In this document: in pieces, positions 21,368 through 64,000 of the stretch | How positions within the stretch are numbered: position 1 is the first letter of the stretch | How the letters are laid out: each line of letters begins with the position of its first letter | Assembly (NCBI GenBank): GCA_016214785.1 | Contig: JACRNV010000056.1 | Location: 6,843 to 70,842 of the forward strand | Reading direction: 5' to 3' | DNA from: Methanobacteriota archaeon | GTDB taxonomy: Archaea > Thermoplasmatota > Thermoplasmata > SG8-5 > JACRNV01 | DNA: 64,000 bases | Program-made: the position numbers and the translations under genes | Notes under the pieces: generated by a model | The model's database searches: none | What the model saw: only the letters and a program-made list of their open reading frames with translations | What the model was told of the DNA's origin: nothing

Positions 21368-21388
21368 CACCGACTGAGCTACGACGGC
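21368..21388 (-). repeat. Exact 21-nt duplicate of the tRNA-Asn 5' end (acceptor stem through D-loop)
   Basis: caccgactgagctacgacggc occurs at 21252-21272 (within the tRNA) and again at 21368-21388, 95 nt upstream of the gene in tRNA orientation. The sequences diverge immediately after D-loop position 21. Confidence 0.7.
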
Positions 21389-21482
21389 ACAGTGTCAAAT
21401 GGCCTATAATCCAAAGGGGGATTTAAGTTTATGCCAGTCTGCAACTGTATAAGGGGTAGTTATCGACCTTCAATTAGATCGC

Positions 21483-32413: not shown

Positions 32414-32449
32414 TATCTTCTATAATAATTTATGTGATTTGAGATATTG

Positions 32450-33064: not shown

Positions 33065-33077
33065 ATTGGCCGAGAGC

Positions 33078-33377: not shown

Positions 33378-33484
33378 TTTATCGCCACGGGTGCATTATC
33401 GCAAGAGGTATTTATAAGTCCCGTTAAGTGGACAATATTCACATACACCAAAATATTTATCTTAATATGCTGTCTGGTTTTTAG

Positions 33485-35002: not shown

Positions 35003-35014
35003 TATTTTTTTAGG

Positions 35015-36226: not shown

Positions 36227-36354
36227 CTCTGATTTTGAATCGTTGTTTTTTATGATCATATAGCAACTAGAAAACGTTATAAAGTGGGGATTAATAGACT
36301 TTGCCATAGGTTTAATATATGGACATCCTCTCATTTCAATCATCGGACAAGAAA

Positions 36355-38466: not shown

Positions 38467-38578
38467 CAGAGAAAAATTATATTGACCGGAGAGACCGGCT
38501 ATTATATTCTCAATGTGCGTTTCAACGCCACCGATTAGTGGTTTAAATTTATCATAGTATAAACAAACCCGTTTAATT

Positions 38579-39687
38579 TTACTCCCCCCCTTCGTTCATA
38601 GTTATTTCATTAATTAAATTTAAGTACTTATCCGCAACACGTTTCCAAGTATAGTTATTTTCAATCGTAAGGATGCCATTTCGAGAAATAGAATCGAATA
38701 GCTGTTTATTTTCTTTAATCTTTCGAATTGCATTTACTATTTGTTCGACCTCCAAATCCACGATTATTCCATTATAACCATCGGTAATAACATCTTTCAT
38801 GCCTCCAATACTACTCACAATAACAGGTTTCCCAATCGACATTGCTTCGAGAGCTCCAAGACCTAATGATTCACCGATTGTAATCTGAGCATAGATATCA
38901 CAAGAGTGTAAAGCGACCCATGAATTGGGTATTGTGCCTGTAAAAACCACATAATCTGTCAATCCTACTTTTTTTACATAGGATCTTAACTCCTCAAGAT
39001 GTGGCCCATCTCGAGTTAAAACCAATCTAATCCCGGGATATATTGCTTTTAATTTAGATATCGCTGTGATGAGTAATTTAGCGCCTTCGGCTTTGTTCTT
39101 TAGAAATGTCAACCCTAATCCCAATACAATGGGATTTGCATTTGATAAGTTAAATTCTTTTTTAAATTGAATTATTTCCTGTTCAGTTACTTCTTCCTTA
39201 TCTGCGCCAGAAACTATTACGGCGGTCTTTACCTTAAATTTAATTTTCCCTACATTTTTAATATTATTAAGATGATACTGAGATACGAAACAAATCACAT
39301 CGCATCGATTTAATAAAAAGTTGTATGCCATTCGTTTATACCATGGAATTGAGGAGGTAAATGACGTGTGAAATAGGTATAAAATGGGGACATGATTAAA
39401 ATATTTAAATAAAATCGCCGGCAACAGGGTAAACCACCCTCCTTGAACGTGCATTACATTTGGTTGTTCTTTGCGTAAGATATTATAGGCTTTAAATGCA
39501 AAAGCAATTTTATTGTTATTCAAACCATAATTTTGTTCGTCCTTACCAATTCTGTAAATCACTTTAACATCATTCTGTTGGTGTCTTGAAAAATAATGTG
39601 CAATTTTTATAACAGTCTTATCAACTCCGCCGCCGCAGCCTTTCCAGTAATTTGTAAGAAAGACTACTTTAGTTTTTTTCATGGTCA
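38579..39687 (-). CDS. GT4-family glycosyltransferase
   Basis: Start MTMKKTKVVFL (ATG 39685-39687); …GLGALEAMSIGKPVIVSSIGGMKDVITDGYNG…. Confidence 0.85.
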
Positions 39688-40001
39688 TTGAAAACCCAAT
39701 GTCTATTATATATATATCTTTTTTGTATTTGTTTAGCTGGCAGCCATACGTCGCAGACAACCCTACATCCCCGCTGGGTCTTTCAAACCTTTCCGATGAA
39801 GGATGCACAAACGCATCTGCTCTCGAAACCCCCTGTTCTAGGTCGGTCAGACGTGAGCTAAACAAATACTCTTTTTTATGGTTTGGGGGAAAAAGATGAC
39901 ATGTAATAATTCATGTAAAACCTTAAATGCTATTTCAATATAAGGATTTACGATGCACAACATTCAACAGCCATCAAATAGACAGGTGATGATAGTATTT
40001 C

Positions 40002-40811
40002 ATGGAGGAAAAAATGAGCCTTAAAAAAATTTTTGGATTATTACCCGAAAGAAGTATAAAGCATAAAATTAGATGTATTTACTACAATAATTTTAAGGAT
40101 ATCGATTTTCAACTATCGTATAAAAAGGGACATTATACTGTTACATTCAAAGATGGAATTGTAATTAAATTTTATAATAATCCCTGTGGAATTCTTACAG
40201 AAATTGTTAAAGAATATTTTCTTAAATATAAGTTGAAAAAAGGAGATATTGTGATTGATGCGGGGGCGTGGTTCGGCCCATTTGCCATATACGCGGCTTC
40301 ACAGATAGGCCCCACTGGCAAAGTTATTGTTTTTGAGCCGGATCCTTTAAATTACATCGATTTGAAAAATAACATTTTGTTAAATAATCTAAATAACATT
40401 GTAGCTATCAACAAAGGGCTTTGGAATACTAAATCGACCCTTCGATTTTTTTCAATAGGAAAATATTCTGGAGGATCACATATATTATTCGACGATTCTT
40501 TAAAAGAAAATAAAGGATACGTCGAAATTTCAGTTGTAAGTCTTGATGAAGAGTTGAAATTACAGGGAATTAGTCAAGTAGATTTTATAAAAATGGACAT
40601 TGAAGGGGCTGAAATAGAAGCTATTGAAGGGAGTAAAAATATACTGCAAAATAGAAATACTAATCTAGCAATCGCTACTTATCATATTCGAAATGGAGAG
40701 ATGACATGTAAAAAAGTAGAGCATTTGTTAAAATCATATGGATATTATGTGGAATCATTGAACCCGCACCATCTGACAACATATGCGACGCCCATTGATA
40801 GTCGAAATTAA
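40002..40811 (+). CDS. FkbM-family SAM-dependent methyltransferase
   Basis: VIDAGAWFGPFAIYAA (SAM-binding Gly-rich motif), FEPDPLNY, …FIKMDIEGAEIEAI…. Confidence 0.85.
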   Translation: MEEKMSLKKIFGLLPERSIKHKIRCIYYNNFKDIDFQLSYKKGHYTVTFKDGIVIKFYNNPCGILTEIVKEYFLKYKLKKGDIVIDAGAWFGPFAIYAASQIGPTGKVIVFEPDPLNYIDLKNNILLNNLNNIVAINKGLWNTKSTLRFFSIGKYSGGSHILFDDSLKENKGYVEISVVSLDEELKLQGISQVDFIKMDIEGAEIEAIEGSKNILQNRNTNLAIATYHIRNGEMTCKKVEHLLKSYGYYVESLNPHHLTTYATPIDSRN

Positions 40812-40834
40812 TTAGAGAATAAAAATGTAATATT

Positions 40835-42586
40835 TTATATGGCCCATATTGAACAATAACTTCTAATGTATATCAGTGATGCGGAATTACCAGATATAGT
40901 CTTACGTAGATGCCACTGTGGAGGGGGTAATTCAACACCTGAAAATCCGTTATTTTTTAAGGTTACAACTAGCTCGTAATGATTATTAATAATGAGAAGA
41001 GGATATTGAACTGTAAAATCAATTTGACCTATGCCCCTACCCTGTACTGCGCCCATGTACGTTGTAGCCATGGGGCCGTGAATGCTGTTGGTTGTCGATT
41101 CCCAGTAAATGCCTTCAATATTATCAGGCATTTCCCTATCGATATTATATTGTATTGAATAAAATGATAGGGCAATAGAGGCCACAACTAAAATGATTAC
41201 TATCTTTTTTATTTGATGCTTTTCTCGAAGTAAATTTATTGTTCCCCAGCCCACTAATATAGAAATAAATGGAGCTAGGTAAATATACGTTCTCTGTAGT
41301 TTTACGTCAACATAATATTCGCCTACTATTAGAAAGATCAGAAACATTGAAAGGCTCAATACTGCAGATAGCATTAGATAATTCCTGCGTACTTTCGAAA
41401 TCACAAGATATACGGATGGAACAATTATTACTAAAGGTAGAAGATTGATATGCCAAGCATACATTATCTGCTTTAATAAAGTAATAAAGGAAGTTTCTTT
41501 TGCTTCAGAACTAATGACTTCCCAGAGAGTCACGAAGCCTGACGGAGAAGTCGGTATGTCAACTCCAATTGTAAAAATTGTGACTAATAATAGAACGCCT
41601 AGTATCATCGGAATTCCTAACATTAGCAGGACCCACTGATGACTTTTTATTTTTTTACTCGGTAATGGTCCCAATTCTTTACTCTGAAAAATTGGTTTCT
41701 TCCGAACAAGATATAATATTGTAAGAAGCATAAAAATCGCTATTATCAGCCCGAGTATTTGTTCTTTAGTCATTTCTATACCAAATATCATTACGTCGAA
41801 ACGCTTTGAAATTATTCCCCCAAGGCGCATTATTGTTTCGACAGGTGCATTGTACCAGAAAAAGAATGACATAAGACCTCCAATTAGAGTGGAGAAAATT
41901 AGTGGTGTTTGGAAAGTATGAAAAAAATTTTGCTTGTTTTTAACAAAGGGTAACATAATAACAGAAATAATTACTACAATAGTAAGCCATATAACAGCAG
42001 TCGGTCTATGTGTTATAAAAATAGAAAAAACGAAAATTGTGCAAAAGATAAACTTAATTAGATCATCATTTACCACAGCCAATGTAAGGAAAATTAATAG
42101 TATAAGTATATTCCCATATGAGGAAGGTAATATATTCATCGGCCCATGCATATTTGTTCCAGAAATAAAAAGTGATCCACAAAAGCTGGCAATAAAACCG
42201 ATATAGCTATTATTTGTAATTTTTTTTGCCAGTAAATAAATTAAAATGCAAAAAAATACCCAGAATATAATTGATAAATATGATACATCCATAAAATTGA
42301 TTCCAGTTAATTCCCTTGCATTATTTAGGATTAATGTGAAGCCCGGTGGATAAAACTCATATGTTCCATTCAGCCGAAAGATATTGCTCCATGATGTGTC
42401 AAAATTCAATCTCTGCTCAAAATCAATTTGACGCATTTGAATGACCTGGCTCCAAAAATCTGGATTCGTTATGCCATTATAAGAATGATTTATATAATAC
42501 ACAGAATATTCTAGGGTACATACGAAAAATATTATTGTAAGTAGAAATAATAATTCGATTTTTCGCTTCATTTCGGCCTCCCACAT
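40835..42586 (-). CDS. Polytopic integral membrane protein (≥12 TM) with ~100-aa C-terminal soluble domain; possible polysaccharide polymerase or GT-C-like enzyme
   Basis: 583 aa, very hydrophobic, in the glycosylation island between glycosyltransferase genes. No family confidently recognised. Confidence 0.55.
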   Translation of the reverse strand: MWEAEMKRKIELLFLLTIIFFVCTLEYSVYYINHSYNGITNPDFWSQVIQMRQIDFEQRLNFDTSWSNIFRLNGTYEFYPPGFTLILNNARELTGINFMDVSYLSIIFWVFFCILIYLLAKKITNNSYIGFIASFCGSLFISGTNMHGPMNILPSSYGNILILLIFLTLAVVNDDLIKFIFCTIFVFSIFITHRPTAVIWLTIVVIISVIMLPFVKNKQNFFHTFQTPLIFSTLIGGLMSFFFWYNAPVETIMRLGGIISKRFDVMIFGIEMTKEQILGLIIAIFMLLTILYLVRKKPIFQSKELGPLPSKKIKSHQWVLLMLGIPMILGVLLLVTIFTIGVDIPTSPSGFVTLWEVISSEAKETSFITLLKQIMYAWHINLLPLVIIVPSVYLVISKVRRNYLMLSAVLSLSMFLIFLIVGEYYVDVKLQRTYIYLAPFISILVGWGTINLLREKHQIKKIVIILVVASIALSFYSIQYNIDREMPDNIEGIYWESTTNSIHGPMATTYMGAVQGRGIGQIDFTVQYPLLIINNHYELVVTLKNNGFSGVELPPPQWHLRKTISGNSASLIYIRSYCSIWAI

Positions 42587-43839
42587 ATTTTTTTCTTTGA
42601 TTCAATAGTAGAGTAATATAGTGCGAAAATTTTTTCAGCAATATTTTCCCACGAATATTGATGAGCATCTCTAGCTATTCGATCCCTATCCCATTCTCTT
42701 TCGATTGCTCTAATAACAATCTCGGATATATCTTCAGGCTTTTCTACAACAATTCCAGATTCTTTCGTCAATATTTCCTTAACTCCTCCGACATTGGTCG
42801 TGATTACTGGCAAACCGCATGATAGTGCCTCAAACATTACAGTAGGATTACCCTCCGCAGTGCTGGTTAAAATGAATAAATCCGCGGAATTATACCAATA
42901 GTTCAATTCTTCAATCGTTTTTTCTGTACTAACAATTGATACACATTTTGATAGCTGATAATCACCAACTAATTTTTTCAAGAATTTCTCTTCTGGACCT
43001 GTGCCAATAATAGTCAAAATGGAATTCGGATATTTCTCGTAGATTTTTCTATAGCTCTTAATTAAAGAATCATAAGCCTTTCTTTTTGTTAGAGACCCGA
43101 TTGATAAAAGTAAAAATTTATCCGTCGGAATATTTAGATATTTACGTGCTAATGTTTTATTCATAATATAGAAATGCTTTGATGGAAAACCATTGGGAAT
43201 AATATTAATTTTACTAGAAACTAAATCAGTTTCATATAGATTTTTATCTACTGAAGTAACTCGAATAATATTGGTAAATTTTTGGAGTAAATTCTGTATT
43301 TTGCTATCTTTCATTAAATCTGCGAATATGTTTTGATTTTCATGATTTGTCAGAACGATTGGAATATCGAAAAATTTTGTAAGTTCATATGCGACTATTC
43401 CCGAAGAAATGACGAAATGAGCATGAATTATATCTGGTCGATTATTTCTAAAAAGATTTTTTACTATCCATTTCGCAATTCGTTTAGAAGCCATTTGTTT
43501 AGAATAAAAAGAATGAAAATAAATAGGTTTAGGAAAATAAATTTCGATATTCTGATATACATAATTCTGTGCAATTATATCTCGTTGATGAGCGGGTGTG
43601 AGAAAACGCTTAAATATTGGTATATTTGGAACATATGGAGTCATAGCGATCACAGTGACTTTATTGAATTTTACACTTAATGCATCGACCTGTCCCTTGA
43701 CGAAGGCTCCACTAATAGGATCTCCAACATGGGGATACCTATTGCAAATGATTAATAACCAATTTAAATGAGTGGGGCTTTTTATGTTGTTCATCATTAG
43801 ACCTCTTGAATCAACATTATTCGAATATGATATAGCCAT
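42568..43839 (-). CDS. GT4-family glycosyltransferase
   Basis: …STAEGNPTVMFEALSCGLPVITTNVGGVKEIL…. Confidence 0.85.
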   Translation of the reverse strand: MAISYSNNVDSRGLMMNNIKSPTHLNWLLIICNRYPHVGDPISGAFVKGQVDALSVKFNKVTVIAMTPYVPNIPIFKRFLTPAHQRDIIAQNYVYQNIEIYFPKPIYFHSFYSKQMASKRIAKWIVKNLFRNNRPDIIHAHFVISSGIVAYELTKFFDIPIVLTNHENQNIFADLMKDSKIQNLLQKFTNIIRVTSVDKNLYETDLVSSKINIIPNGFPSKHFYIMNKTLARKYLNIPTDKFLLLSIGSLTKRKAYDSLIKSYRKIYEKYPNSILTIIGTGPEEKFLKKLVGDYQLSKCVSIVSTEKTIEELNYWYNSADLFILTSTAEGNPTVMFEALSCGLPVITTNVGGVKEILTKESGIVVEKPEDISEIVIRAIEREWDRDRIARDAHQYSWENIAEKIFALYYSTIESKKKICGRPK

Positions 43840-43852
43840 GTTTTTTTCGCAA

Positions 43853-44911
43853 TCATACAGACACCGATGATTTTTTTATATTTGAATTTTCTATAAGCTG
43901 TACCACGTATTCCGTTACATCTATTTTATCATTTAACATTTTTGCTTGCTTTTGTTTCCATACGCTCTTTAGATTGTGAACATTAAGCAATGAAGAAATC
44001 TCCTCGATTATCTTTTGAATATTTTTATCATTTCTGAGATGATAGTAGAGGAGACCATATTTTACTTGTTCAGAAATTGTCCCGGGCTTTAAATTATTAA
44101 CATATATAGCAGGAGTTCCTAATATCGCTGCCTCGGATGCCATTGTTGCTCCTTCACCAATGTATATCGTTGCGTAATAAAGTAAATCATGCATTTTTTC
44201 GGGAGGTATCTTCATCATATAATGCTTGTATTTACATTCAATTGGGGCTTCCGATGTAATAATTATCTTAACTTTTTTTTCAATTTCGGATATTAAGTTG
44301 TTGAAAGTAACCTCTTTCTCTTTATTATTACCGATATCGTGTGCTGCGTCCCATGATACAAATCTAATTATTACAAACTTCTCTCCTGGAGTGATGCCCG
44401 CTTCCTTTAATGTATCTGGGTTCGGTTTAAAATATTTAGGATGAAGGTAAGCTAATTCTTTGAAACCATTATATCTTACTTGCTTCTTTCCCAGGTTCTT
44501 CGTGTAGCAAACAGGCGTACATATCACTGTAATGAACGTATCCATCAGGAAATGCTCGAACTTCGAGTGCTCCGTATCATCGAAAACTATGGATGGCTTG
44601 CCGATTATCTTTCCTACATGCGCGACGTACACGTTCCCTACGCCACCCACGAGTACGTCTGGTTTGAACTTCTTTGCTATTCTTAATATCTTCCAATCCT
44701 TCTTTATCAATTCGACGGCCTTTTGGATTAGCGTGGATGGCGACTTTCCGATTACTTCGTATTCGAAACCGTAAGCTTTTAACAATTGTATTGCTACGTC
44801 CTTATCAGAGGTCGTTATCTTGCATACATGCCCACGCTTTTGTAACTCCCAGATAGTGTTCTTGAAGAAGTGCACCTGCGCCGGATGCCCGATGTTGAAA
44901 AGTATCCTCAT
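43853..44911 (-). CDS. DUF354-family protein (predicted glycosyltransferase/epimerase-like)
   Basis: Start MRILFNIGHPAQVHFFKNTIWELQKRGH, the hallmark N-terminus of DUF354. Overlaps the deacetylase-like stop (ATGA). Confidence 0.7.
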   Translation of the reverse strand: MRILFNIGHPAQVHFFKNTIWELQKRGHVCKITTSDKDVAIQLLKAYGFEYEVIGKSPSTLIQKAVELIKKDWKILRIAKKFKPDVLVGGVGNVYVAHVGKIIGKPSIVFDDTEHSKFEHFLMDTFITVICTPVCYTKNLGKKQVRYNGFKELAYLHPKYFKPNPDTLKEAGITPGEKFVIIRFVSWDAAHDIGNNKEKEVTFNNLISEIEKKVKIIITSEAPIECKYKHYMMKIPPEKMHDLLYYATIYIGEGATMASEAAILGTPAIYVNNLKPGTISEQVKYGLLYYHLRNDKNIQKIIEEISSLLNVHNLKSVWKQKQAKMLNDKIDVTEYVVQLIENSNIKKSSVSV

Positions 44912-45690
44912 TGCCTCGACCTCAAAAACATCTTCCCCACGTTCCTCACGTTCTGCCCCACCAACTCTGAGAGCCACTCCACCTTTCCTCTAGCCCATCT
45001 CTGGGGATGGGTATTGACCATCACGCGCTTGTACCGCTGTGAGTTCATCACCTCGACAAGGTGCTCCGTGCCCTTTATCCTTTCGCCGAGGGGCCGGCCC
45101 AGCCTGTCCCTCACGCTGGCCTCGCCGCTGCTCCACTTCCTTCCGGTGTCCGTTATGTACGCCACGTCCTCGAACTTCCCGGAGATGTGCGGGTCGCCGA
45201 GGAGGCCGTGCTTGTTCAGGTCCACCCCTCTCAGGAGGTCGGCGTTGTCCACCCTCGAGAGCGGGGAGCCGTGCATGGCCACGGTCCGGACGGGCGCGAG
45301 CTCCCTCAGGATGGCGAGCTTGGACCCGAAGTCCTCCAGCGCCTTGTCCTTGTCCCCTATCTCTGAGAGGTTCTCGTAGTGGTACCCGACCTCGTGGCCG
45401 AAGAGCTTGCACTCGAGCACCTCCTTCTCCGGGAAGCCCGGTACTCCAGGGAAATCGGGCGTGGCCTCGGGCATCCAGCGGAAGTAGTACGTGGCCCGCA
45501 CGCCCCGCGCCTTCTCCATCCTGGCCATCCGGGACGCGCGGGACGGAAAGCGATCAACATCGTGCCGGAGGACGCAGAACGGCTCGGAAGCTTTGCCGGA
45601 GAGGAAATCCTCGACTGTGGCGACGCCGTACCCCGCGAGGGCGTCAAGCAGCCTGGAGTAGGCGTCGAGGGTGAAGTCCATCGGCCTCAA
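44908..45690 (-). CDS. Polysaccharide deacetylase-like (CE4-related) protein; first high-GC gene after the island
   Basis: …VLRHDVDRFPS…RATYYFRW…HEVGYHYE… (Asp/His metal-site pattern of CE4-like deacetylases). GC ~64%. Confidence 0.65.
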   Translation of the reverse strand: MRPMDFTLDAYSRLLDALAGYGVATVEDFLSGKASEPFCVLRHDVDRFPSRASRMARMEKARGVRATYYFRWMPEATPDFPGVPGFPEKEVLECKLFGHEVGYHYENLSEIGDKDKALEDFGSKLAILRELAPVRTVAMHGSPLSRVDNADLLRGVDLNKHGLLGDPHISGKFEDVAYITDTGRKWSSGEASVRDRLGRPLGERIKGTEHLVEVMNSQRYKRVMVNTHPQRWARGKVEWLSELVGQNVRNVGKMFLRSRQ

Positions 45691-54200: not shown

Positions 54201-54302
54201 AAGGCGTACGACAAGGCCCTGGGCCTCGACCCGAGGCTCGAGGAGGCGCGGCGCTGGAGGGAGCGGTGCGCCAAGCGCATAGATGAAGGGGGCGGGGCCT
54301 GA
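51201..54302 (+). CDS. 1,033-aa protein: N-terminal zinc ribbon, Pro/Glu-rich disordered linker, C-terminal array of ≥12 TPR repeats
   Basis: CLSCGK…CPDCC ribbon; ~300-aa PxxP/E-rich linker; TPR consensus (W-LG-Y, A-F-A-P) repeated from ~aa 590 to the end. Its stop overlaps the next ATG (TGATG at 54300-54304). Confidence 0.8.
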   Translation: MVPLLECLSCGKATPPRVLLCPDCCDSRAASDALWFADPDLPGAGGISRASGCNTLVLRDGAAAPEILVADSSGRFEAPRDLNSRDLESGKWQSTARAAVSLAAIPAVIPDKGAVHVEAGDHAWLERSLGSAIRDGPGDAERIDPLLACRLAALTWHSRVSQTIVPALGDDWVARFDSAAARRTLAWLDLALKAKPSCREALRSKGAVLGMLGREAAAAAVFELLSKVEEDSADVWQKRGRALASTGGQVDALRCFERALAMSRDDPSLWGDKGDSLAALGRHREAVRCYDRALELSPGDRALSEKKADALTRLGDIEQAVSIYDSVKRPSVPRKAPDAQPQRPAWPAAPKEGPPREKMGRAEMPAPAPEPARPATEARPGPSFPVPQEVPKPAAPLMAEAPAPAPIEQPKPAAPERRAPPPSFFSQMKEAAGKIEPEREERDVTPVPIYQAPFMDQPAPPPRKEPAAIPEEEALPGSDMAEPPRKDSPLAKEQALERRLEAEKALPPDREKALPPMKEDLDRLDREIDELLPEEAEPREKPLPGKPLDETFPEEAEPAASKIERELDGFLPQGPGKRAAKRPTRDAEAERIEDDIDNVMLPSQEVEDLFDKAEGLLDEGEYEAALFAYEAVLHKEPRNNDAIAGRADSLAGMGRTGEALKLLNEALSGGPDNIVLLEARGDVEMRAGNYREALDDYNACISTDRTDEIIWVKRGEAALRLKSFDDALASFNRAVELDPQDHIAWIGVGDALVALGKADEGYKCYDKAVELDANSAIAWYKKGLVLDDKGRWGGALQFYDKAIAIDPQLAPARLKVANIYISNNRYDLAIKACDAALAADPLSAEFMVLKARALKLMGRWGAAIQALDDMESAIKGNPQAQVLRGELLMEKGEPDAAMECFDRALAKDQDNVDALVHKGRLLYQNGGFNESIKHFKRASQADPTSVEAWRGLADSFKDVNDEQKALDAYDKALGLAPTDAKLWLAKGIALQEFEKFREAMKAYDKALGLDPRLEEARRWRERCAKRIDEGGGA

Positions 54303-57300
54303 TGTCCAGCGCCGAGCGGCTCCTTGGCAGCCTGCGCGACCTGTCCGACCCGGAGTTCCGGGAGGTCCTCACGAAGCTGCTGAAGGGAATGGGGCTGAGC
54401 GCCAGGAACGTCCGCACCGTCGGCCCGGGGCTGGAGATAGAGGCCGTCCTGGACAGCAACTACGATGCGTACTTCGTCCTCGCGAGCCGCGCGCAGTCGC
54501 AGGCCAGGCCCGAGGAGCTGCAGAAGGGCGTCGAGCGCATGCGCTCCATGGGCATCAGGAAGGGCATTTTCTTTTTACCGGGCGGGGCGACGAAGGAAGC
54601 CCAGGAGTACGCCTCGCAGTTCGACGTCTCGGTCGCCGGCATGGACGACATGTCGGCCCTGCTGGACAAGTTCGATCTCTCCGGGGACGTCGAGCGCAAG
54701 GCGTCGAAGCGCTTCCTGGAGCGCGAGGGGGACAGGTACCTCCCGAGCATCGACAAGCTCGAGACCTCGATGAAGTGGGGGAACGACTTCTACGCCTCCG
54801 GCAACTACCGGAAAGCCATAGACTACTTCGAGCAGGCTGCGGCGCTGAAGCCCAGCTACGACCTGGCCTGGCTGATGCTCGGCAACTGCCACCACGCGCT
54901 CGGAGATTACGACAAGGCAGCCGAGGCTTTCGAGGGCGCGCTCGAGCGCAACCCCGAGAGCGAGGAGGCGTGGTTCGACCTCGGAAACACCCTGTACTTC
55001 CTGGGCAGGCACGACGACGAGCTCGCCTGCTACGACAAGGCCATCGCGCTCAACAAGTCCTACGACAGGCCGTGGAACAACAAGGGCGCGACGCTGCTCG
55101 AGCTGGGGAAGTTCGAGGAGGCCGTCCTGTGCTTCGACAAGGGCCTGAAGGTTGACCCGAAGAACGAGAAGGCGCTGAACAACCGCGGCGTGGCGCTGAA
55201 GAAGCTCGGCAGGATGCGCGACGCGATCGAATCGTTCGACCGGGCGCTCGCCATCGCCCCCGACTATCCGGACGCCATGCTGAACAAGGGCCTGGCCCTG
55301 CAGGAGATGGGCGAATACCTCGCGGCGGTCAAAGCGTACGACGAGGTCCTGGCTAGGGCGAAGTCCGCCGAGCTCTACTGCCAGAAGGCGACGGCGCTCA
55401 TGGCCGCCGAGAGGCATCTGGCGGCCATCGAGTCCGTCGATGCCGCGCTCATCCTCAGGCCCGGCTGGGACGTCGCATTGGATTTGAAGAAGAAGGCCAA
55501 GAGGGCGCTCGACAGGCAGTCGAAGCTCCGGAAGGGCGGGGAGCCCGAAGAACCCCCGAAGCCGACTGAAATTGTCAAGCCGGTGCCAATCACAATGCCG
55601 AAGCCCGTGGAAGCCCCCGAGCCTGAGGTCGCCGCGCCCAAGGTCGAAGAGCCGAAGCTTCCACCGCCGCTCGTCCCTCGAACCGAGATAGGCGGGCCGG
55701 CGGTCGTCGGGTCTCCGCAACCTGTGGAAGCGGTAGAGCCCGCCGGAGCGCCCGTTGCGAAGGCCGAGGGCTCCCCGATTGCGCCGAAGCCAGAGGCGCC
55801 ATGCGCGTCCTGCGGCAAGATGGCCCCGGCCGGCTCGAAGTTCTGCCCCCACTGCGGCGAGCCCATGGCCAGGGAGGGGTTCGTGTGCTCGGACTGCGGC
55901 GCGGAGGTGCTGGAGAGCTACAGGCACTGCCCGTCGTGCGGGGCGGCGCTCGATGAGGGCGAGGAAGAGGGGCTGACCGGGGGCGAGAGGGCCTTCGAGA
56001 AGGTCGAGGATGCGATAGCAAAGGAGCGGTTCGAAAGGACCGTCGACCACCTCTTCGCCGAGGGGGAGCTGAGAAGGCGCCTCGGGGACACCGAGGGCGC
56101 GCTCGACATGCTGCAGAAGGCCTCGGTGCAGATGGTCATACCGTTCGTGCAATCCGATGACCCGAAGGTCTACACCCACGTGGGGATGTGCAACATGGCC
56201 CTGGGCAGGCACGAGGACGCGCTCGAGGCATTCGAGCAGGCCCTGAACCGTGAGCCGGACAACATGCTGGCCATGCACGGCAGGATAGAGGCATTGACGT
56301 TGATGGAGCGGCACGCGTCGGCCAGCGACGCGCTCGACGAGCTGCTCGAATCGGGCGAGAGCGCGAGGCTCTGGCTCATGAAGGCCGACCTGATGGCGCG
56401 ATGGGGCAGGCACGCCCAGGAGGTCGAGGCGCTCGATCGCGCGGCCGAGCTCTCGGGAGAGATAGAGGACCTCTGGGACGTGGAGGGCATCGCCCTCGCG
56501 CTGGACGGCAAGGACGAGGACGCCCTCCTGTGCTTCGACCGCTCCGTGCAGGTCAACCCGGACTACTGGGAGGGGTGGAACAACAGGGGCGTGCTCCTAG
56601 TCGAGGCCGGGGACGTGCCGCTGGCGACGAAGTACGTAGACCGCGCCATCGACGTCGAGCCCGCGGCCTTCGAGGCCTGGGCGAACAGAGCGCACATCAT
56701 CGCTTCCGAGGGCCGCTTGGACGAGGCCGTGGAGTGCATGGAGGAGGCGCTGCTCCTGCGGAAGGCGTCGTGGGCGTGGGCGCAGAAGGGCATTTACCTT
56801 TTGAAGGGCGACCTGGTGGAAAAGGCCCTGGATGCGGCCGAGAGCGGCCTGAAGCTCGATGACAGGGACGCGGGCTGCTGGAACGTCTGCGGCCTCGCAT
56901 TGCTGAGGAAGGGGAGGCTCGCGGACGCCCTGGAGGCGTTCGAGAAGGCCGCGGCCATCGCGCCCGGATTCGAGGACGCGAAGCGCAACCTCGCGCTCGT
57001 CCGGGACAGGATTGAGGGGGACGGGCTGAAGTGCCCCAAATGCGGCGAGAGCGCGTCGCCGGGGGACAAGAGGTGCAGGAAGTGCGGCGGGCGGCTTGCG
57101 CGCGACGCCAGGGAGAACGCCCTGGCGAAGGAGATGGAGAGGGCCATCGCCGAGGACGTCGAGCCCGAGCAGAAGAAGGCGCAGAAGCCCAAGCGCAAGG
57201 AGAAGAGGGCGCCGTCGCGCGAGGAGTTCGTGTCCCTGCTGATGACCGTGCCCGGGATAGGCTACGCCAAGGCCAACGACCTGTGGGAGGCGGGCTTCAG

Positions 57301-57400
57301 GAGCGGGGACGACGTCGCGCGCGCGGACATGGCCATGCTGACGAGGGTGAGGGGCATCACGCCGCACCTGGCCAGGAAGATGAAGAAGGGGCTGGGGTAG
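54302..57400 (+). CDS. 1,032-aa multidomain protein: N-terminal Mrr-cat-like restriction-endonuclease-fold domain, TPR block, double zinc ribbon, second TPR block, zinc ribbon, C-terminal helix-hairpin-helix
   Basis: N-terminus …LTKLLKGMGL…VGPGLEIEAV…YFVLASRAQ…KGIFFLPGGATKEAQEYA…VAGMDDMSALL follows the Mrr_cat layout (the catalytic Lys position reads Arg). CASCGK…CPHCGE / CSDCGA…CPSCGA ribbons. CPKCGE…CRKCGG. …LLMTVPGIGYAKANDLWEAGF…LTRVRGITPHLARKM helix-hairpin-helix. Confidence 0.8.
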   Translation: MSSAERLLGSLRDLSDPEFREVLTKLLKGMGLSARNVRTVGPGLEIEAVLDSNYDAYFVLASRAQSQARPEELQKGVERMRSMGIRKGIFFLPGGATKEAQEYASQFDVSVAGMDDMSALLDKFDLSGDVERKASKRFLEREGDRYLPSIDKLETSMKWGNDFYASGNYRKAIDYFEQAAALKPSYDLAWLMLGNCHHALGDYDKAAEAFEGALERNPESEEAWFDLGNTLYFLGRHDDELACYDKAIALNKSYDRPWNNKGATLLELGKFEEAVLCFDKGLKVDPKNEKALNNRGVALKKLGRMRDAIESFDRALAIAPDYPDAMLNKGLALQEMGEYLAAVKAYDEVLARAKSAELYCQKATALMAAERHLAAIESVDAALILRPGWDVALDLKKKAKRALDRQSKLRKGGEPEEPPKPTEIVKPVPITMPKPVEAPEPEVAAPKVEEPKLPPPLVPRTEIGGPAVVGSPQPVEAVEPAGAPVAKAEGSPIAPKPEAPCASCGKMAPAGSKFCPHCGEPMAREGFVCSDCGAEVLESYRHCPSCGAALDEGEEEGLTGGERAFEKVEDAIAKERFERTVDHLFAEGELRRRLGDTEGALDMLQKASVQMVIPFVQSDDPKVYTHVGMCNMALGRHEDALEAFEQALNREPDNMLAMHGRIEALTLMERHASASDALDELLESGESARLWLMKADLMARWGRHAQEVEALDRAAELSGEIEDLWDVEGIALALDGKDEDALLCFDRSVQVNPDYWEGWNNRGVLLVEAGDVPLATKYVDRAIDVEPAAFEAWANRAHIIASEGRLDEAVECMEEALLLRKASWAWAQKGIYLLKGDLVEKALDAAESGLKLDDRDAGCWNVCGLALLRKGRLADALEAFEKAAAIAPGFEDAKRNLALVRDRIEGDGLKCPKCGESASPGDKRCRKCGGRLARDARENALAKEMERAIAEDVEPEQKKAQKPKRKEKRAPSREEFVSLLMTVPGIGYAKANDLWEAGFRSGDDVARADMAMLTRVRGITPHLARKMKKGLG

Positions 57401-59593: not shown

Positions 59594-61312
59594 CTATGCC
59601 TGGGCCCCCCCGCCCATGGCGCTCTTGAAAGTCTCGATGTCTGCCTTGGCGTCCTTGAGCTTGGGCACCACTTCGGAGAACGCCCCCTTCCTCAGGTCTC
59701 CCTTTGCCTCCTTGAGCAGCTTGGACGCGCGTGCTACGTTCGCGCCTGAGAGCCTGAGCTCCTCGGCGGTGTTCTCGAGCGCCGAGAGCTCCTTGAGCAG
59801 CCTGACCTTCAGCGCGTCTGTCAGGGCCTTCTGGCCTTGCAGGATGTAGGTGACGGCCTTCTTGACCTCCTTCCTCGTGCCGTGCGCCACTGCCTCGGAG
59901 ATGAGCCTCTTGCCTTCCGTGACGTCGAGCTCGAGCTCCTTCGCAAGCCCGAGCATGGGCTTCAGCTCCGAAGCGACCGATGACAGGATTCTGTAAAGCT
60001 CTTTCTCGGAGATGTTGTCGAGGTCCTCTATCCTCACGGCCCCGGACGCCGCCTCCTCCTGCGGCTCGCCCTGCGCCGGCGTTTCCGCGGGCTCGGGCGC
60101 GGCCTCGGCCGGCTGCGCCCGTTCGGGCGTTGGCTGGGAGACCTCTTCCGAAATCGCGGTCTGAGCTGGCGCTTCCTCGGGCTGAGCGGGCGCTATACCC
60201 GGCTGCGCCGTTTCGGCGGGCGCGCCCTCGGCGGGGATCGTGAAATCCTTTCCGCAAACGGTGCACGATTTGCCGTCGGCCGTGAGGGGGCCGTTGCATA
60301 CCGTGCAGGCCCTCTCCTCGCCCAGCAGCTCCCTCTCGAAGGCCTTGACCTCCTCGGCCGACGCGCTCGGCACTATGTCCGGCGCCTCGCCGGTGCCGGT
60401 CTTCGGGAGCAGGTCCGTGACTCCCGCGGCGGATATGACGTGCTTGTAGCATTCGCCCGCGCTCTTGCTGTCCCCCATCCGCGTGAAGAGCCCGGCCATG
60501 GCGATCCATGCCGCGTCGTACTTGGGGTCGATCTCGGTGGCCATCTCGTAGGACTTGATTGCCTCGTCATTGCGTCCCATCTTCGCCAGCATGGAGCCGC
60601 GGGCGTACCAGAGGTCGGTGTTCTTGGTGTCCAGCTCAATCATGCGCTCGTAATGGGCCAGCGCCTTCTCCTCGCTCCCCTCCACTTTCGCGTTCTGGAA
60701 CTCCTTGCCGCACTCGAAGCACGAAGTCTCGAAGATGCTGAGGATCGTGCCGCAAATCGGGCAGGCCTGCTCGGCCTCTATGTCGTCGGCGCTGAGCCGC
60801 GTCTTGCGCAGCCCGTCGATGTCGGAAATCTGGAGCGCGCGCTTGATCGACGCCGCCGACCTCTTGCCGATGCCAGGAACGTTCATGAGCTGCTTCACGG
60901 ACGCGGCCTTGAGCTTGCCCAGGTCGGTGAACCCCGCCTCGTAAAGGGCTTTGGCCTTCAGGTTCCCCACGCCGGGCAGCTTGACGAGCTCCTTTATCTC
61001 CTCTGCCACGAGCTCGTCTATCTTCTGCATCGCGGCCTCCTCGTGGTCGGTCTCGTCGGCCCCTTCCTCCGGAGGGGTGGCCCGGGGCTCGGCCCGCTCG
61101 ATGGCCTCTGCCTGCTCCCCATCCTCCTGGAATTCGGCCCCGCAGCCCGGACACACCTTCGCGTTTGCCTCGACGAGCTTGCCGCACATCGGGCAGCCGA
61201 AGGTCTGGTCCTCGTCGCTTAGGACGGTCTTGCAGATGGGACAGAGCATCGCATCGCTGGGAATGTTGCTGCCGCAAACGGGACAACGCATGCTATTTCC
61301 TAAATACGGCAT
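59594..61312 (-). CDS. ~570-aa protein with multiple zinc ribbons, tandem helix-hairpin-helix motifs, TPR repeats, an Ala/Pro/Glu-rich linker and a C-terminal coiled coil
   Basis: Start MPYLGNSMRCPVCGS (alternative MRCP at 61291). CPVCGS…CPICKT, CPMCGK…CPGCGA, CPICGT…CFECGK, CTVCNG…CTVCGK. …LVKLPGVGNLKAKALYEAGF…LMNVPGIGKRSAASIKRAL helix-hairpin-helix. TPR (…WYARGSMLAKMGRNDEAIKSYEMATEIDPKYDAAW…). ORFs in other frames here are GC noise. Confidence 0.75.
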   Translation of the reverse strand: MPYLGNSMRCPVCGSNIPSDAMLCPICKTVLSDEDQTFGCPMCGKLVEANAKVCPGCGAEFQEDGEQAEAIERAEPRATPPEEGADETDHEEAAMQKIDELVAEEIKELVKLPGVGNLKAKALYEAGFTDLGKLKAASVKQLMNVPGIGKRSAASIKRALQISDIDGLRKTRLSADDIEAEQACPICGTILSIFETSCFECGKEFQNAKVEGSEEKALAHYERMIELDTKNTDLWYARGSMLAKMGRNDEAIKSYEMATEIDPKYDAAWIAMAGLFTRMGDSKSAGECYKHVISAAGVTDLLPKTGTGEAPDIVPSASAEEVKAFERELLGEERACTVCNGPLTADGKSCTVCGKDFTIPAEGAPAETAQPGIAPAQPEEAPAQTAISEEVSQPTPERAQPAEAAPEPAETPAQGEPQEEAASGAVRIEDLDNISEKELYRILSSVASELKPMLGLAKELELDVTEGKRLISEAVAHGTRKEVKKAVTYILQGQKALTDALKVRLLKELSALENTAEELRLSGANVARASKLLKEAKGDLRKGAFSEVVPKLKDAKADIETFKSAMGGGAQA

Positions 61313-61443
61313 ATAAGGTAACCAGCATATATTTTTTCTGTCTGGCCTGCGCCATGCAACAATTTGACAGGGTAACGACGGGGGACTGTGAAAATTGGTG
61401 GTGCGAAACCAATTATCTATGCTATCCACAGGGTATGATCTTC

Positions 61444-61494
61444 TATCGCGACGAGAAGACACCGGCAGAGTGATTCCTCGTCGCGGGCACGGAC
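61444..61494. repeat. Conserved-stem hairpin unit 1 (ATCGCGACGAGA-17 nt-TTCCTCGTCGCGGGCACGGACT)
   Basis: 9-bp GC-rich stem CGCGACGAG/CTCGTCGCG with 22-nt loop. The second unit has identical stem and tail but an unrelated loop. Confidence 0.65.
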
Positions 61495-61532
61495 TTGGTG
61501 CGCAAGTCCTACCTTTGCATCTATTTCACTTA

Positions 61533-61583
61533 TATCGCGACGAGAGGATGCTTATAAAATGTTTCCTCGTCGCGGGCACGGAC
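61533..61583. repeat. Conserved-stem hairpin unit 2
   Basis: atcgcgacgagaggatgcttataaaatgtttcctcgtcgcgggcacggact; stems and 3' tail identical to unit 1, loop divergent. Confidence 0.65.
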
Positions 61584-61652
61584 TAATCCTGTGCACTCTT
61601 TCAGATTAGTCCTACCATTTTACTTTGACCTAATTGCACAGAGAAAGTAAAA

Positions 61653-61815
61653 TGGACCCATCGGGATTTGAACCCGAGGCCTCCTGCTGTTTTGGCTCCC
61701 CAACCCCAGTCCGGCGGAATTGGCGAGTGCCAAATCCTTTCCGTGGGGGTCAAGGGGGATTCCCGAGGGAATCCCCTTGCAAAGCAGGCGATCTTCCGGG
61801 CTGATCTATGGGCCC
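61653..61815 (-). tRNA. tRNA-Ala (anticodon TGC) with an 89-nt intron at the canonical 37/38 position (intron ≈ 61689..61777)
   Basis: Exons fold as GGGCCCA-TA-GATC-AGCCCGGAA-GATC-G-CCTGC-TTTGCA^A-GCAGG-AGGCC-TCGGG-TTCAAAT-CCCGA-TGGGTCC-A. The G3:U70 pair is the tRNA-Ala identity element. The intron contains the hairpin GGGGATTCCCTCGGGAATCCCC. A T-rich stretch (TTTTACTTTCT) follows the 3' end. Confidence 0.8.
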
Positions 61816-61886
61816 AGCTTGCGTGGCTATTGAGCGGCGGGATATAATTGTTTCCCTGCAGCGCAGGGCCGAGGATAATCTTTTCT

Positions 61887-64000
61887 ATGTGTGATGTTTT
61901 CGCGCTAAACGGGGGCATCTTGGAGGCTTTCGAATTCAGGGAGCCGCGGTTCGTTGGCAGGACCGCCGAGCTCGATACCCTGACCAGGCATCTAGGCGAA
62001 GCGCTCAGCGGCCGTGGAAGGACGCTCATCGTGACCGGGGAGCCGGGAATGGGCAAGTCCAGGCTCGTCAGGGAGTTCCTTAGGAAACACGGGGAGGAGG
62101 GCGGCTGCCTCGTCATCAACGGGGCGGCTCTTGCCGATTCTGCGCATCCGTTTCAGCTGTTCTCAAGCGCGCTCCGTGAAACGACAGCCGCCCCGCTTTT
62201 CCAAGAGACCGAGTTTGTCTCTTTTTCCACAGTCCTCGCCCTCGATGGCCAAGGGCGTGTCCTGGCATGCGTGACTTCAAAGACAGGCTCCGATTTCGAA
62301 GCTGGAAGGCTTGCGAAGATGATCTCGGGCGTCCAGGACTTCGTCTGCGACTCGTTCTTTAAGCAAACCCCTGAAAAAAAGGGCGGGCTAGACCGGCTCG
62401 AGTACGGCGATGCCAAGGTGCTGATGGAGCGCGGCGACGGCTTTGTCATCTGCGCCCTGTTCAAAGGGGGTGAGAATCCGGAGATGCGAGAGCATCTCAG
62501 GAGGACCGTTCGGGAGATGGAGGCGCTCGGAGGGGGGGAAGGCGGCAGAACAGTATATTCGCTTCAATCGGCATTGACCCATCTCGTCGACCTCAGAATG
62601 AAGGTTCGCCGGGACCTGGAGCGCGTGAACCTCGATGCCGAGAGGAACAGAATCTCAGGGGAAATATTGAAAGCCCTCTCTAGGATCGCCGATGATAAGC
62701 CCCTCATCCTGGCGCTCGAGGACGTCCATTGGGCCGACGAGTCCTCGGCATTCGTCTTCAACTACCTCTGCAGGAACGCCCGCCGCGAGAAGATGTTAGT
62801 GGTGGCGACATCGCGGCCCAGGGAGAATTCCCCCATCCAGGGAGTCGTCCGCGGCCTGCTCGATGACGGAATGCTCACCGAGATAGAGGTCAGGGAGCTT
62901 GGAGTCGGCCTCGCCGCCGACATCGTGAATGACATCTTCCAGGAAAACTCGATACCCCGGTCGTTCATTGAAGAACTGTCGAAACGCTGCGAGGGCAACC
63001 CACTATTCCTGATCGAGACCCTGAGGCAGATGGCCGCGGACGGGGCGATCGCCTCGGGGGGGGAGGGCCACCATCTTGCAAAGGAGGGGTTCGCGATACC
63101 TGGCACCGCCGGGGAGATGGTCAAACGGAGGCTCGAATCGCTCGATCCCGATGCCATGGCCGTCGCCGAGTACGCTTCCTGCATCGGGAGGGTGTTTGAG
63201 GTCAATGCAGCGCTTTCGATACAGAGCATCCGTGATGGCCCATTGGCTCTCAAGCGGCTGCGCGATTCCGGCCTTCTCGTCAAAAGAGGGGGAAAGATGG
63301 AATTCGCCCACGAGCTCTTCCGAGAGGCGATATACGGCGGAATCGGGGAGAGATGGAGGCTCGCGTACCACAGAGCCCTGGGCGAGTACTACGAAAGAGC
63401 GCACGCGGACGACCTTGACGCCGTGCTCTACGATCTGGCCAGTCATTTCTCGAGGAGCGCCTGCCACGAGAAGGCATACGATTACTGCACCAGGGCGGCG
63501 GAGAAGGCGGAGGGCGCTTACGCCCCTGAGCAGGCGATTGCGTTTTTCGAGGCGTCGCTCCGGTCCTTGGGCACGCTCCGAGAGAAGCCCAAGGGGGCGG
63601 ACCCGGGGCGCATCCGCCTCAGGATTGGGCAGGACCTTCAGCTCATCGGCCAGCTGGACAAGGCCGAAGCCTCGTACAGGGCGGTCATCGAGGCATCCTC
63701 TGCGGATGGGGACAAGGGGCTCCTCGCGGACGCCTACTCGGGGCTCGGGAACGTCCTGTGCCACAAGCCAGAATACGAGACGGCGCTCGACTTCTCGCAG
63801 AAGGCGATTGCCATTTATAAAAAGCGCGATGATAACATCGGTGTTTTCAAGGCCATGGGGAGCATCGGCTACGTGCACTACTACCGCGGCGAATACGACA
63901 AGGCGATGGAATGCTTCGATGCCCAGCTCGCCCTGGCCGAGAAGGACGGGGACAAGCTCCGCGTCGGCAGAGCCCTGAGCGACATGGGGGGCATCTACTG
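61887..64000 (+). CDS. STAND-type P-loop NTPase with a Roadblock/LC7-like domain inserted between Walker A and Walker B, followed by C-terminal TPR repeats (Avs-like architecture); 3'-truncated by the window end
   Basis: ATG 61887. …FVGRTAELDTL…TLIVTGEPGMGKSRLV (Walker A). ~150-aa insertion …VLALDGQGRVLACVTSKTG…DAKVLMERGDGFVICALF… (Roadblock-like). LILALEDVHWADESS (Walker B). Then helical/TPR region. No stop before 64000, so it is absent from the ORF track. Alternative-frame ORFs 63003..63878 and 63076..63978 are noise. Confidence 0.75.
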   Translation, partial: MCDVFALNGGILEAFEFREPRFVGRTAELDTLTRHLGEALSGRGRTLIVTGEPGMGKSRLVREFLRKHGEEGGCLVINGAALADSAHPFQLFSSALRETTAAPLFQETEFVSFSTVLALDGQGRVLACVTSKTGSDFEAGRLAKMISGVQDFVCDSFFKQTPEKKGGLDRLEYGDAKVLMERGDGFVICALFKGGENPEMREHLRRTVREMEALGGGEGGRTVYSLQSALTHLVDLRMKVRRDLERVNLDAERNRISGEILKALSRIADDKPLILALEDVHWADESSAFVFNYLCRNARREKMLVVATSRPRENSPIQGVVRGLLDDGMLTEIEVRELGVGLAADIVNDIFQENSIPRSFIEELSKRCEGNPLFLIETLRQMAADGAIASGGEGHHLAKEGFAIPGTAGEMVKRRLESLDPDAMAVAEYASCIGRVFEVNAALSIQSIRDGPLALKRLRDSGLLVKRGGKMEFAHELFREAIYGGIGERWRLAYHRALGEYYERAHADDLDAVLYDLASHFSRSACHEKAYDYCTRAAEKAEGAYAPEQAIAFFEASLRSLGTLREKPKGADPGRIRLRIGQDLQLIGQLDKAEASYRAVIEASSADGDKGLLADAYSGLGNVLCHKPEYETALDFSQKAIAIYKKRDDNIGVFKAMGSIGYVHYYRGEYDKAMECFDAQLALAEKDGDKLRVGRALSDMGGIY

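Follow-up and report, generated by a model that had tools for sequence, protein, structure and literature searches.

Intergenic small RNA genes with tandem paralogues are known from bacteria, with the OmrA/OmrB and Qrr sRNAs as examples, and intergenic sRNAs in general are also found in archaea. Like such genes, the locus that we describe here has a short intergenic stem-loop unit with a U-rich end, a tandem duplication, an upstream promoter-like element, and a conserved scaffold that carries a variable segment. In contrast, its modules are unrelated to those genes by sequence and by Rfam, their loops are unusually large, and they always converge on a tRNA gene. Judged from its sequence, the element matches no described family, and it is best classed as an intergenic hairpin RNA candidate. 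What sets it apart is that perfect stems close large variable loops, that the module always converges with a tRNA gene, that it is linked to one gene family, and that tandem duplication has recurred. We tentatively interpret its two copies in the window (the whole 64-kb stretch of DNA analysed) as tandem modules of a plus-strand locus that would encode small structured non-coding RNA of a new family, a reading to which we give a little less than an even chance. The modules form a small, previously undescribed family that occurs end to end with a tRNA gene in several uncultured, sparsely sampled Thermoplasmatota archaea.

The locus comprises the following features. The scores of the two modules refer to covariance model R1, which is built from the two window copies.

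59594–61291, minus strand: gene for a 565-aa protein with double-zinc-ribbon, helix-hairpin-helix, and TPR domains (Pfam DZR, HHH_5, and TPR), referred to as the zinc-ribbon/HhH/TPR gene
61393–61414, plus strand: third hairpin, similar to hairpin 2, with arms AATTGGT/ACCAATT and loop GGTGCGAA (inverted-repeat search)
61404–61418, plus strand: candidate archaeal promoter, BRE-like CGAAAC, then C, then TATA-like AATTATCT
61440–61528, plus strand: module 1 (81.9 bits), in the order flank CTTCTAT, hairpin 1 (61447–61485), GGCAC (61486–61490), hairpin 2 (61491–61509), TACC, spacer TTTGCATCTATTTCA
61447–61455/61477–61485, plus strand: inverted-repeat arms of hairpin 1, copy 1
61491–61509, plus strand: hairpin 2, copy 1, GGACTTG/CAAGTCC, 7 bp, loop GTGCG
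61529–61614, plus strand: module 2 (83.4 bits), in the order flank CTTATAT, hairpin 1 (61536–61574), GGCAC (61575–61579), hairpin 2 (61580–61612), TA
61536–61544/61566–61574, plus strand: inverted-repeat arms of hairpin 1, copy 2
61580–61612, plus strand: hairpin 2, copy 2, GGACTAATC/GATTAGTCC, 9 bp, 15-nt loop
61615–61655, both strands: AT-rich perfect 12-bp palindrome CCATTTTACTTT/AAAGTAAAATGG with a 17-nt loop
61653–61815, minus strand: tRNA-Ala(UGC) gene (RF00005, 48 bits; ARAGORN with introns allowed)

The two modules share a 56-nt direct repeat, with copies at 61440–61495 and 61529–61584 of the plus strand that are 80% identical and spaced 89 nt. Both copies contain the motif ATCGCGACGAGA-N17-TTCCTCGTCGCGGGCACGGACT (61445–61495 and 61534–61584, plus strand), and in both the arms CGCGACGAG/CTCGTCGCG of hairpin 1 form a perfect 9-bp stem with a 21-nt loop. 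The hairpin pattern occurs twice in the 64-kb window, compared with 0.00 occurrences expected from shuffles, and the stem-tail 19-mer occurs twice, compared with 0.04 expected. The hairpin pair is real and non-random. The original prediction of two hairpins with identical 9-bp stems 89 nt apart is borne out by the repeat and inverted-repeat searches, and its placement of them between tRNA-Ala and the start of the gene at 59594–61291 is correct, although the positions that it gave for the pair are one base off.

Between the two copies, 10 of the 21 loop positions of hairpin 1 are substituted, compared with 0 of the 18 stem positions and 1 of the 17 flank positions. The loops had been described as unrelated, but 11 of their 21 positions still match, indicating that they are diverged copies. 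The stems of hairpin 1 had been taken to show a covariation-like pattern, but within the window they are merely identical, and the pattern between the two copies is conservation, not covariation. The tail that follows hairpin 1 is identical in both copies, as had been noted, but its GGACT is not free and corresponds to the 5' arm of hairpin 2. Therefore, the real unit consists of hairpin 1, GGCAC, hairpin 2, TACC, and a T-rich stretch. The base of hairpin 2, GGACT/AGTCC, is the same in both copies; the upper stems differ (TG/CA versus AATC/GATT) with the pairing kept, and hairpin 2 is followed in both copies by the conserved TACC and then by the T-rich stretch. The unpaired linkers GGCAC, TACC, and CTTNTAT are as conserved as the stems, and the hairpin 1 loops are half diverged. 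In accordance with the proposal that the repeat is not a plain neutral duplicate, substitutions spare the stems, linkers, and flanks (10/21 in the loop versus 1/35 in stem plus flank, Fisher p = 8.5e-5), hairpin 2 stays paired through differing sequences in the two copies, and five related contigs carry positionally equivalent modules whose stems show two-sided compensatory changes. Altogether, the 361-nt spacer contains four perfect hairpins with stems of 8 bp or more (12–36-nt loops), compared with 0.06 expected.

The zinc-ribbon/HhH/TPR gene is the conserved neighbour of the hairpins and the tRNA in all related contigs. Orthologues of its product are rare, with 8 found in 5.8 billion proteins and 2 more with a second query, and the nearest named relatives are Thermoplasmatota/Thermoplasmata MAGs. 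The loci compared, each including the upstream spacer, are L011, L012, L014, L015, L016, and L114, all found via this protein; L013 is the same strain as the window. Exact-sequence searches return no record of the proteins encoded in the window, and the contigs of two closer relatives, L009 and L010 (83% protein identity), end inside the gene. All six related loci have an unusually long spacer (400–1400 nt) with a tRNA-Arg(GCG) gene, and all six carry 2–5 perfect hairpins (8–14 bp, 12–36-nt loops) per 400–680 nt, compared with 0.1–0.3 expected. The hairpins are 3–6 nt apart in five loci (L011, L012, L014, L015, and L114). The exception is L016, which is equally hairpin-rich, yet no module could be aligned there. 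The window and these five loci each contain two perfect hairpins 3–6 nt apart, the first with a loop of 17–32 nt.

The two-hairpin unit is tandemly duplicated in the window and in L011, L012, and L114, with periods of 89, 92, 75, and 151 nt, respectively. As in the window, the differences between the two L114 units are confined to the loops and the outer flanks. A loop of exactly 21 nt is present in both window copies of hairpin 1 and in two L011 hairpins. The module points at the 3' end of the tRNA in 6/6 loci where its orientation could be set. A hairpin at 21112–21152 beside tRNA-Asn suggests that other tRNA genes of the source genome might carry such modules. In the window, L011, L012, and L114, the tRNA, the hairpins, and the zinc-ribbon/HhH/TPR gene lie in line on a single strand, and the tRNA gene stands between the hairpins and the zinc-ribbon/HhH/TPR gene in L014 and L015. 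The anatomy of the family can be summarized as a short 5' flank, a perfect 9–12-bp stem with a 17–32-nt loop, a 3–6-nt linker, a second perfect stem of 7–14 bp, and, in most loci, a T-rich stretch at the 3' end, with the module always facing the tRNA 3' end and adjoining the zinc-ribbon/HhH/TPR gene.

Model R1 was searched in ~215 kb. In keeping with the Infernal-type search that had been suggested, the model of the two copies yields no additional copy within the 64 kb (next score 10.9 bits, versus 82–83 bits) and finds matches in the syntenic spacers of L011 (9641–9695, minus strand, 21.7 bits) and L012 (3815–3866, minus strand, 14.3 bits), where the background in the ~215 kb is at most 12.9 bits. 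In both matches, the 5' flank is CUU.UA.C and the loop ends in UGUUUCC, as in the window, and the L011 match also has the 21-nt loop length of the window copies. The stem of hairpin 1 is CUCGGCAAG/CUUGCCGAG at L011 and UGGCUCAAG/CUUGAGCCA at L012. Across the three lineages, 6 of the 9 pairs of hairpin 1 are changed on both sides and 100% of the cells are paired, in an alignment that is fitted to the model.

A second, independent model, R2, derives from L014, L015, and L114 (two L114 units). The alignment of this sister clade is 80% identical, keeps the loop ends and flanks, and shows hairpin X, 3 nt, hairpin Y, and then T5–T8, with compensated changes in 8 of the 23 pairs. The best window match of R2 is full length (61527–61633, plus strand, 15.1 bits) and aligns X with hairpin 1, Y with hairpin 2, and the U-tract with CAUUUUACUUU. 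An assignment by eye of window hairpin 1 to hairpin Y of L014 is rejected, since X is the counterpart that R2 gives to hairpin 1. In the six other loci searched with R2, its best matches are at L011 (9695–9737 and 9602–9692, both minus strand). Scores of 15–16 bits are modest against the 13.0 bits that unrelated AT-rich archaeal DNA attains; the position and strand agree with those of R1. Plain pairwise alignments between the clades are mostly not significant, with only copy 2 versus L011 (minus strand) reaching z = 3.2, and MAFFT misaligned hairpins with differing stems; therefore, the model-based alignments were used. Between the genomes of the few lineages compared, the pairing is kept by compensatory changes.

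Template switching yields perfect inverted repeats and can mimic compensatory change (PMC8794818). The hairpins could accordingly be non-functional palindromes, produced by tandem duplication and then by template switching or intrastrand repair in a recombination-prone region beside a tRNA, to which relics of integrated elements may add. All stems are perfectly Watson–Crick paired with sharp ends and no internal G-U, as this process predicts (PMC8794818); such stems are also expected from a DNA-level palindrome or from a function on both strands. Duplications related to tRNAs are present nearby (the 5' end of tRNA-Asn is copied, an intron-like motif is repeated at two loci, and L011 carries the 3' end of tRNA-Arg in four copies), and the tandem periods differ from genome to genome, which suggests independent recent events. 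However, the X-Y module shows 80% identity among L014, L015, and L114 with its loop ends and flanks conserved, and the position and orientation of the module relative to the tRNA are kept although the neighbouring protein is only 32–50% identical among the contigs that share them. In addition, GGCAC, TACC, and CTTNTAT are conserved like the stems, which palindrome-making mutation does not explain. On balance, we consider an origin without function unlikely, though with an appreciable chance of being correct.

If the modules are instead functional RNA, as we favour, the strand on which they act has to be assigned. Both strands of the spacer fold much better than shuffles, the minus strand at −71.7 kcal/mol (z −5.7) and the plus strand at −66.4 kcal/mol (z −4.5). 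Stem ends carry G-U and A-C in balanced numbers (7 versus 8), thus giving no strand signal. It is conceivable that the hairpins act in the tRNA-sense (minus-strand) RNA, as a 3' trailer of tRNA-Ala or as a leader towards the zinc-ribbon/HhH/TPR gene reached by read-through. On that strand, the better fold consists of four clean local hairpins, hairpin 2 gains U-G and A-U pairs (GGUA...UGCC), hairpin 1 extends to 10–11 bp, and a T4 run follows the hairpin at 61393–61414; the collinear order of tRNA, hairpins, and gene in the window, L011, L012, and L114 also fits such an RNA. Against this, T4 directly past tRNA-Ala and T8 past the L114 tRNA should stop most tRNA transcripts (PMC8716108). There is no promoter-like element between the tRNA and the first hairpin, and a separate TATA-like element precedes the ATG of the downstream gene by ~22 nt. 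Both R1 and R2 prefer the opposite orientation; for R1 at L011, the score is 21.7 bits in the tRNA-facing orientation versus 11.3 bits in the other. Likewise in the tRNA-facing orientation, T5–T8 directly follows the second hairpin in L014, L015, and both L114 units, and a change from G-U to A-U at the base of hairpin X fits the tRNA-facing strand only. A role in tRNA-sense RNA is accordingly improbable. Counting against the plus strand in turn are its weaker fold, the lack of a clear T-run past the second hairpin of L011 and L012, and the T-runs of the window, which are T3–T4 only.

We infer that the plus strand, which faces the tRNA, is transcribed, and with it the ends and the function of the RNA. 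By the promoter-to-start spacing that is general among archaeal promoters, the BRE/TATA-like element at 61404–61418 would place the transcription start at ~61438–61445, the first bases of the repeat. This element resembles the promoter-like GGGAAAC-AATTATAT (61842–61856, minus strand) located 26 nt upstream of tRNA-Ala. Similarly, L114 has on its tRNA-facing strand a strong TATA, TTATATAAAAAT, ~60 nt upstream of its first hairpin and ~25 nt upstream of the conserved leader of that hairpin. No separate promoter precedes module 2 at the correct spacing. The loop of the hairpin at 61393–61414 resembles the GTGCG loop of hairpin 2, copy 1, and the two have the context TGGTGCG..ATCTAT in common in the alignment. 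This hairpin may be the relic of a further module upstream.

The putative transcript would span both modules (~185 nt) and would end in the U-tracts of the AT-rich palindrome (61615–61626). The right arm of this palindrome overlaps the last 3 nt of tRNA-Ala, a gene with an intron of 89–91 nt in its anticodon loop that converges on the hairpin modules. The palindrome reads CCATTTTACTTT on both strands (T4 then T3) and would supply the same U-tract to tRNA-Ala on the opposite strand. Archaeal terminators are U-tracts of 4–7 U, and a hairpin is not needed (PMC8716108). Tracts of at least 4 U are present past module 2 on the plus strand (T4 at 61618–61621) and past tRNA-Ala on the minus strand (T4 at 61652–61649). 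The palindrome could therefore end both converging transcripts and is a candidate shared U-tract terminator for the tRNA and the hairpin RNA. In L014, L015, and L114, the 3' end of the tRNA likewise borders on a palindrome with a T-run and an A-run, equivalent to that at 61615–61655.

The hairpins had originally been proposed to be either a functional RNA hairpin or a palindromic protein-binding site. The structured RNA fits better, as each locus has 3–5 differing palindromes back to back in which the pairing is conserved and not the sequence; the binding site fits less well. In this second case, the hairpins would be DNA-level elements, namely binding or cruciform sites for a regulator of the divergent zinc-ribbon/HhH/TPR gene or of the tRNA, possibly the HhH protein itself. 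The 9-bp half-sites are 21 bp apart (about three helical turns from centre to centre), the loop is exactly 21 nt in both window copies and in the two L011 hairpins, the palindromes are perfect, and the linkage to a gene with domains of a DNA-binding type (HHH_5 and zinc ribbons) is conserved. Stems that are the same within a genome and different between genomes are likewise expected with a co-evolving partner that reads their sequence. However, 3–5 different palindromes per locus would need as many proteins, hairpin 2 keeps its pairing and not its sequence between copies, and the loops of homologous hairpins range from 5 to 34 nt. The sites are also 130–300 bp upstream of the TATA of the gene, which is far for archaeal regulators, and in L014 and L015 the tRNA gene separates them from the zinc-ribbon/HhH/TPR gene. 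We regard a DNA-level role as quite improbable. It is very doubtful that the locus is only a terminator or insulator array that blocks converging or read-through transcripts between the highly expressed tRNA and the promoter region beside it, with no role for an RNA product: this would account for the AT-rich U-tract palindrome on both strands at the tRNA 3' end (window, L014, L015, and L114) and for the T-runs directly past the second hairpin (L014, L015, and L114), but what archaeal termination requires is a U-tract and not a hairpin (PMC8716108), no U-tracts follow the GC-rich, 21-nt-looped hairpins and a scan finds no terminator-like site there, and the conserved linkers, the conserved loop ends, and the tandem duplication are left unexplained.

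Returning to the structured RNA, its best-supported design would place constraint on the stems and the unpaired linkers, with the large loops either unconstrained or diversifying. Stability, and possibly the binding of a sequence-specific partner protein, would then come from a scaffold of the invariant stems, the GGCAC linker, and the TACC flank, and the large, fast-diverging loops would be the exposed variable part. That the stems are the same within a genome and different between genomes points either to a recent event of duplication or gene conversion, or to co-evolution with a partner that recognizes their sequence. Pairing of the loops with target RNAs is an unlikely function; the hairpin 1 loops have no complementarity of at least 11 nt to targets within the window. 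Very unlikely is the more elaborate scheme of a new class of archaeal RNA, in which the conserved double-hairpin scaffold would be read sequence-specifically by a co-evolving partner, perhaps the zinc-ribbon/HhH/TPR protein, with loops of ~21 nt as interchangeable guide or recognition segments and with tandem duplication adding specificities. In this scheme, the constant convergence on a tRNA gene might stem from a part that the modules play in the expression or processing of the tRNA. A single 12-nt match to the loop of the AT-rich palindrome, at 43566 (minus strand), is about what chance would give.

With Rfam 15 at gathering thresholds, only two tRNAs pass in the window, a permissive scan of 61250–61900 gives matches at chance level only, and no Rfam family is matched at the related loci. 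A check for box motifs had been suggested; the C box (RUGAUGA) is absent from both strands of 61380–61660 even with one mismatch allowed, as are C/D boxes, and a lone CUGA is located inside a loop. The likeness to archaeal H/ACA guide sRNAs consists of the 9-bp lower stem and of an AUA (ANA type) directly past hairpin 1, which is present only on the minus strand, whereas the models favour the other strand. An H/ACA sRNA is rejected, as the 21-nt loop is too small for a pseudouridylation pocket, an upper stem, and a K-turn or K-loop. An inner helix within the hairpin 1 loop would have at most 3–4 bp in copy 1 and is absent from copy 2, and the H/ACA families in Rfam give no match of note.

Several repeat-based elements resemble the locus in part. 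As in a CRISPR array, blocks that are identical within a genome take turns with variable segments whose length is fixed at 21 nt, and the repeat differs between genomes. CRISPR arrays, however, have at least three near-identical direct repeats of 23–50 nt between unique spacers of similar length; here there are two 89-nt units with three conserved blocks and two variable segments each. The variable part is enclosed by the conserved blocks, which are hairpin arms and not repeats on either side of a spacer, and no cas context came to notice. A CRISPR array is thus rejected. Repetitive extragenic palindromes (REPs), MITE-like palindromic elements, and the hairpins at IS200/IS605 ends are likewise extragenic perfect palindromes in direct orientation. 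REP, MITE, and PATE-type repeats are scattered in many copies through a genome; the hairpins described here have no further copy within the 64 kb of the window, and their position is kept across genomes rather than mobile. Scanning viral contigs for the hairpin pattern gives 72 single chance matches, none with the tail, and blastn against phages and plasmids gives no match. In a genome collection from which the source genome is absent, the 20-mer CCTCGTCGCGGGCACGGACT gives single chance matches in unrelated GC-rich bacteria, none with the hairpin. In a metagenome scan with the 3' exon of tRNA-Ala, 23/23 classifiable matches are the rRNA-operon tRNA-Ala of unrelated archaea.

A scan for bacterial-type intrinsic terminators finds none at the hairpins, and its only match (61675–61654, minus strand) consists of the tRNA T-arm and a T-run. 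Hairpin 1, with its 21-nt loop followed by GGCAC, does not have the form of an intrinsic terminator. The likeness to bidirectional terminators between convergent genes is limited to 61615–61655, with the same U-tract on both strands; in contrast, the two hairpins of the window are GC-rich and large-looped, with no U-tract directly after them. A replication origin is also rejected, as the neighbouring ATPase is of the STAND/AAA_16-TPR type and not Orc1/Cdc6, the repeats are direct, and there is no GC-skew turn in the window.

If transcribed, the modules would define a new structured RNA family in never-cultured Thermoplasmatota lineages, whose non-coding RNAs are essentially unmapped. The locus would also give a candidate RNA–protein pair with a gene product of a nucleic-acid-binding type, and a sequence that may serve convergent archaeal genes as a common terminator. 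If template switching made the palindromes, the locus would instead show cleanly, in nature, how that process can imitate RNA covariation. A 78-kb contig of a "Euryarchaeota archaeon" MAG, with an identical contig in run SRR12113407, encodes MBI5001503.1, to which the neighbouring STAND ATPase, a 704-aa fragment in the window, has 100% identity over the aligned 98%.

In the window, hairpin-like and duplicated elements lie beside tRNA-Asn, and the flank of this tRNA gene shares a sequence motif with the tRNA-Ala(UGC) intron. Features of the window include the following.

21112-21152, hairpin next to tRNA-Asn, its perfect 9-bp stem (GCCGCATGC...GCATGCGGC) closing a loop of 23 nt
21252-21273 and 21368-21389, exact 22-nt duplicate of the tRNA-Asn 5' end, 116 nt upstream of the tRNA-Asn gene
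54302-57400 (+), 1032-aa protein with zinc ribbons, many TPRs, and a C-terminal HhH
61842-61849, palindromic TATA-like element (ATATAATT) between the divergent tRNA-Ala and STAND ATPase genes

The stem of the hairpin next to tRNA-Asn is a near-match to the hairpins GCCGCATCC and GCCGCATCT of the related Thermoplasmatota contig L011, and a similar GGATTC lies before it. The hairpin may be a further member of the same class, located at a second tRNA. The duplicate of the tRNA-Asn 5' end is followed by an insertion and then by a second partial match (GCGGCTGAC); it resembles a fragment of a pseudo-tRNA or the scar of an integration event.

A motif of ~45 nt, AAGGGGATTYCYTCGGRAATCCCCCTTGACCCCCA..AAAGGATTT in the minus-strand sense, occurs at two sites of the window (21040-21090 and 61700-61770), one immediately downstream of tRNA-Asn and the other within the tRNA-Ala intron. 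The two copies are 92% identical over 36 nt. The sequence around the copy by tRNA-Asn can be arranged into an anticodon-arm-like fold, AATCC-TTTCGA-[insert]-GGATT. This copy may represent either an extra intron-bearing tRNA missed by ARAGORN and Rfam or a mobile element resembling an intron.

In four related metagenomic contigs, the T-loop of tRNA-Arg(GCG) holds an intron; its length is ~130-170 nt in L014 and L015, and ~46 nt in the other two, L016 and L114. These genes are missed or poorly scored by standard tRNA finders. Repeats are present in L011 and L015.

L014 ~1683-1900 (-), L015 ~2340-2520 (-), L016 ~960-1075 (+), and L114 ~901-1018 (+), intron-bearing tRNA-Arg(GCG)
L011 9479-9574 and 9783-9878, 96-nt repeat pair, 90% identical, either side of the hairpin units
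L015 2649-2798, three tandem 50-nt repeats upstream of the zinc-ribbon/HhH/TPR gene

Both ends of each 96-nt repeat are copies of the tRNA-Arg 3' end (TCCCGKCTCGGGCG), giving four copies in L011, the tRNA's own 3' end included; each repeat also holds a long tRNA-like hairpin (GCCCGARCGGGA...TCCCGKCTCGGGC). The tandem repeats of L015 are bracketed by inverted CCCTAGACCCTAGACCC-type repeats at 2611-2632 and 2827-2881. In the related contig L012, the tRNA 3' end recurs as an inverted copy 17 nt after the tRNA.

At the hairpin locus of the window, CTGTGCA in the loop of the second hairpin of copy 2 (61590-61596) is complementary to TGCACAG in the loop of the AT-rich palindrome (61634-61640). A loop-loop contact between the two is possible, although a match of 7 nt could be chance. 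On the other side of tRNA-Ala, the STAND ATPase gene has its ATG at 61887, and the spacing of the TATA-like element would allow it to serve both genes.

The protein encoded at 54302-57400 is larger than the product of the 59594-61291 gene (-), shares its domain set, and is encoded 2 kb away; it is probably a paralogue. The region 32000-45000 is a low-GC island (31-41%, compared with 57-68% in the rest of the genome) and is probably horizontally acquired DNA.
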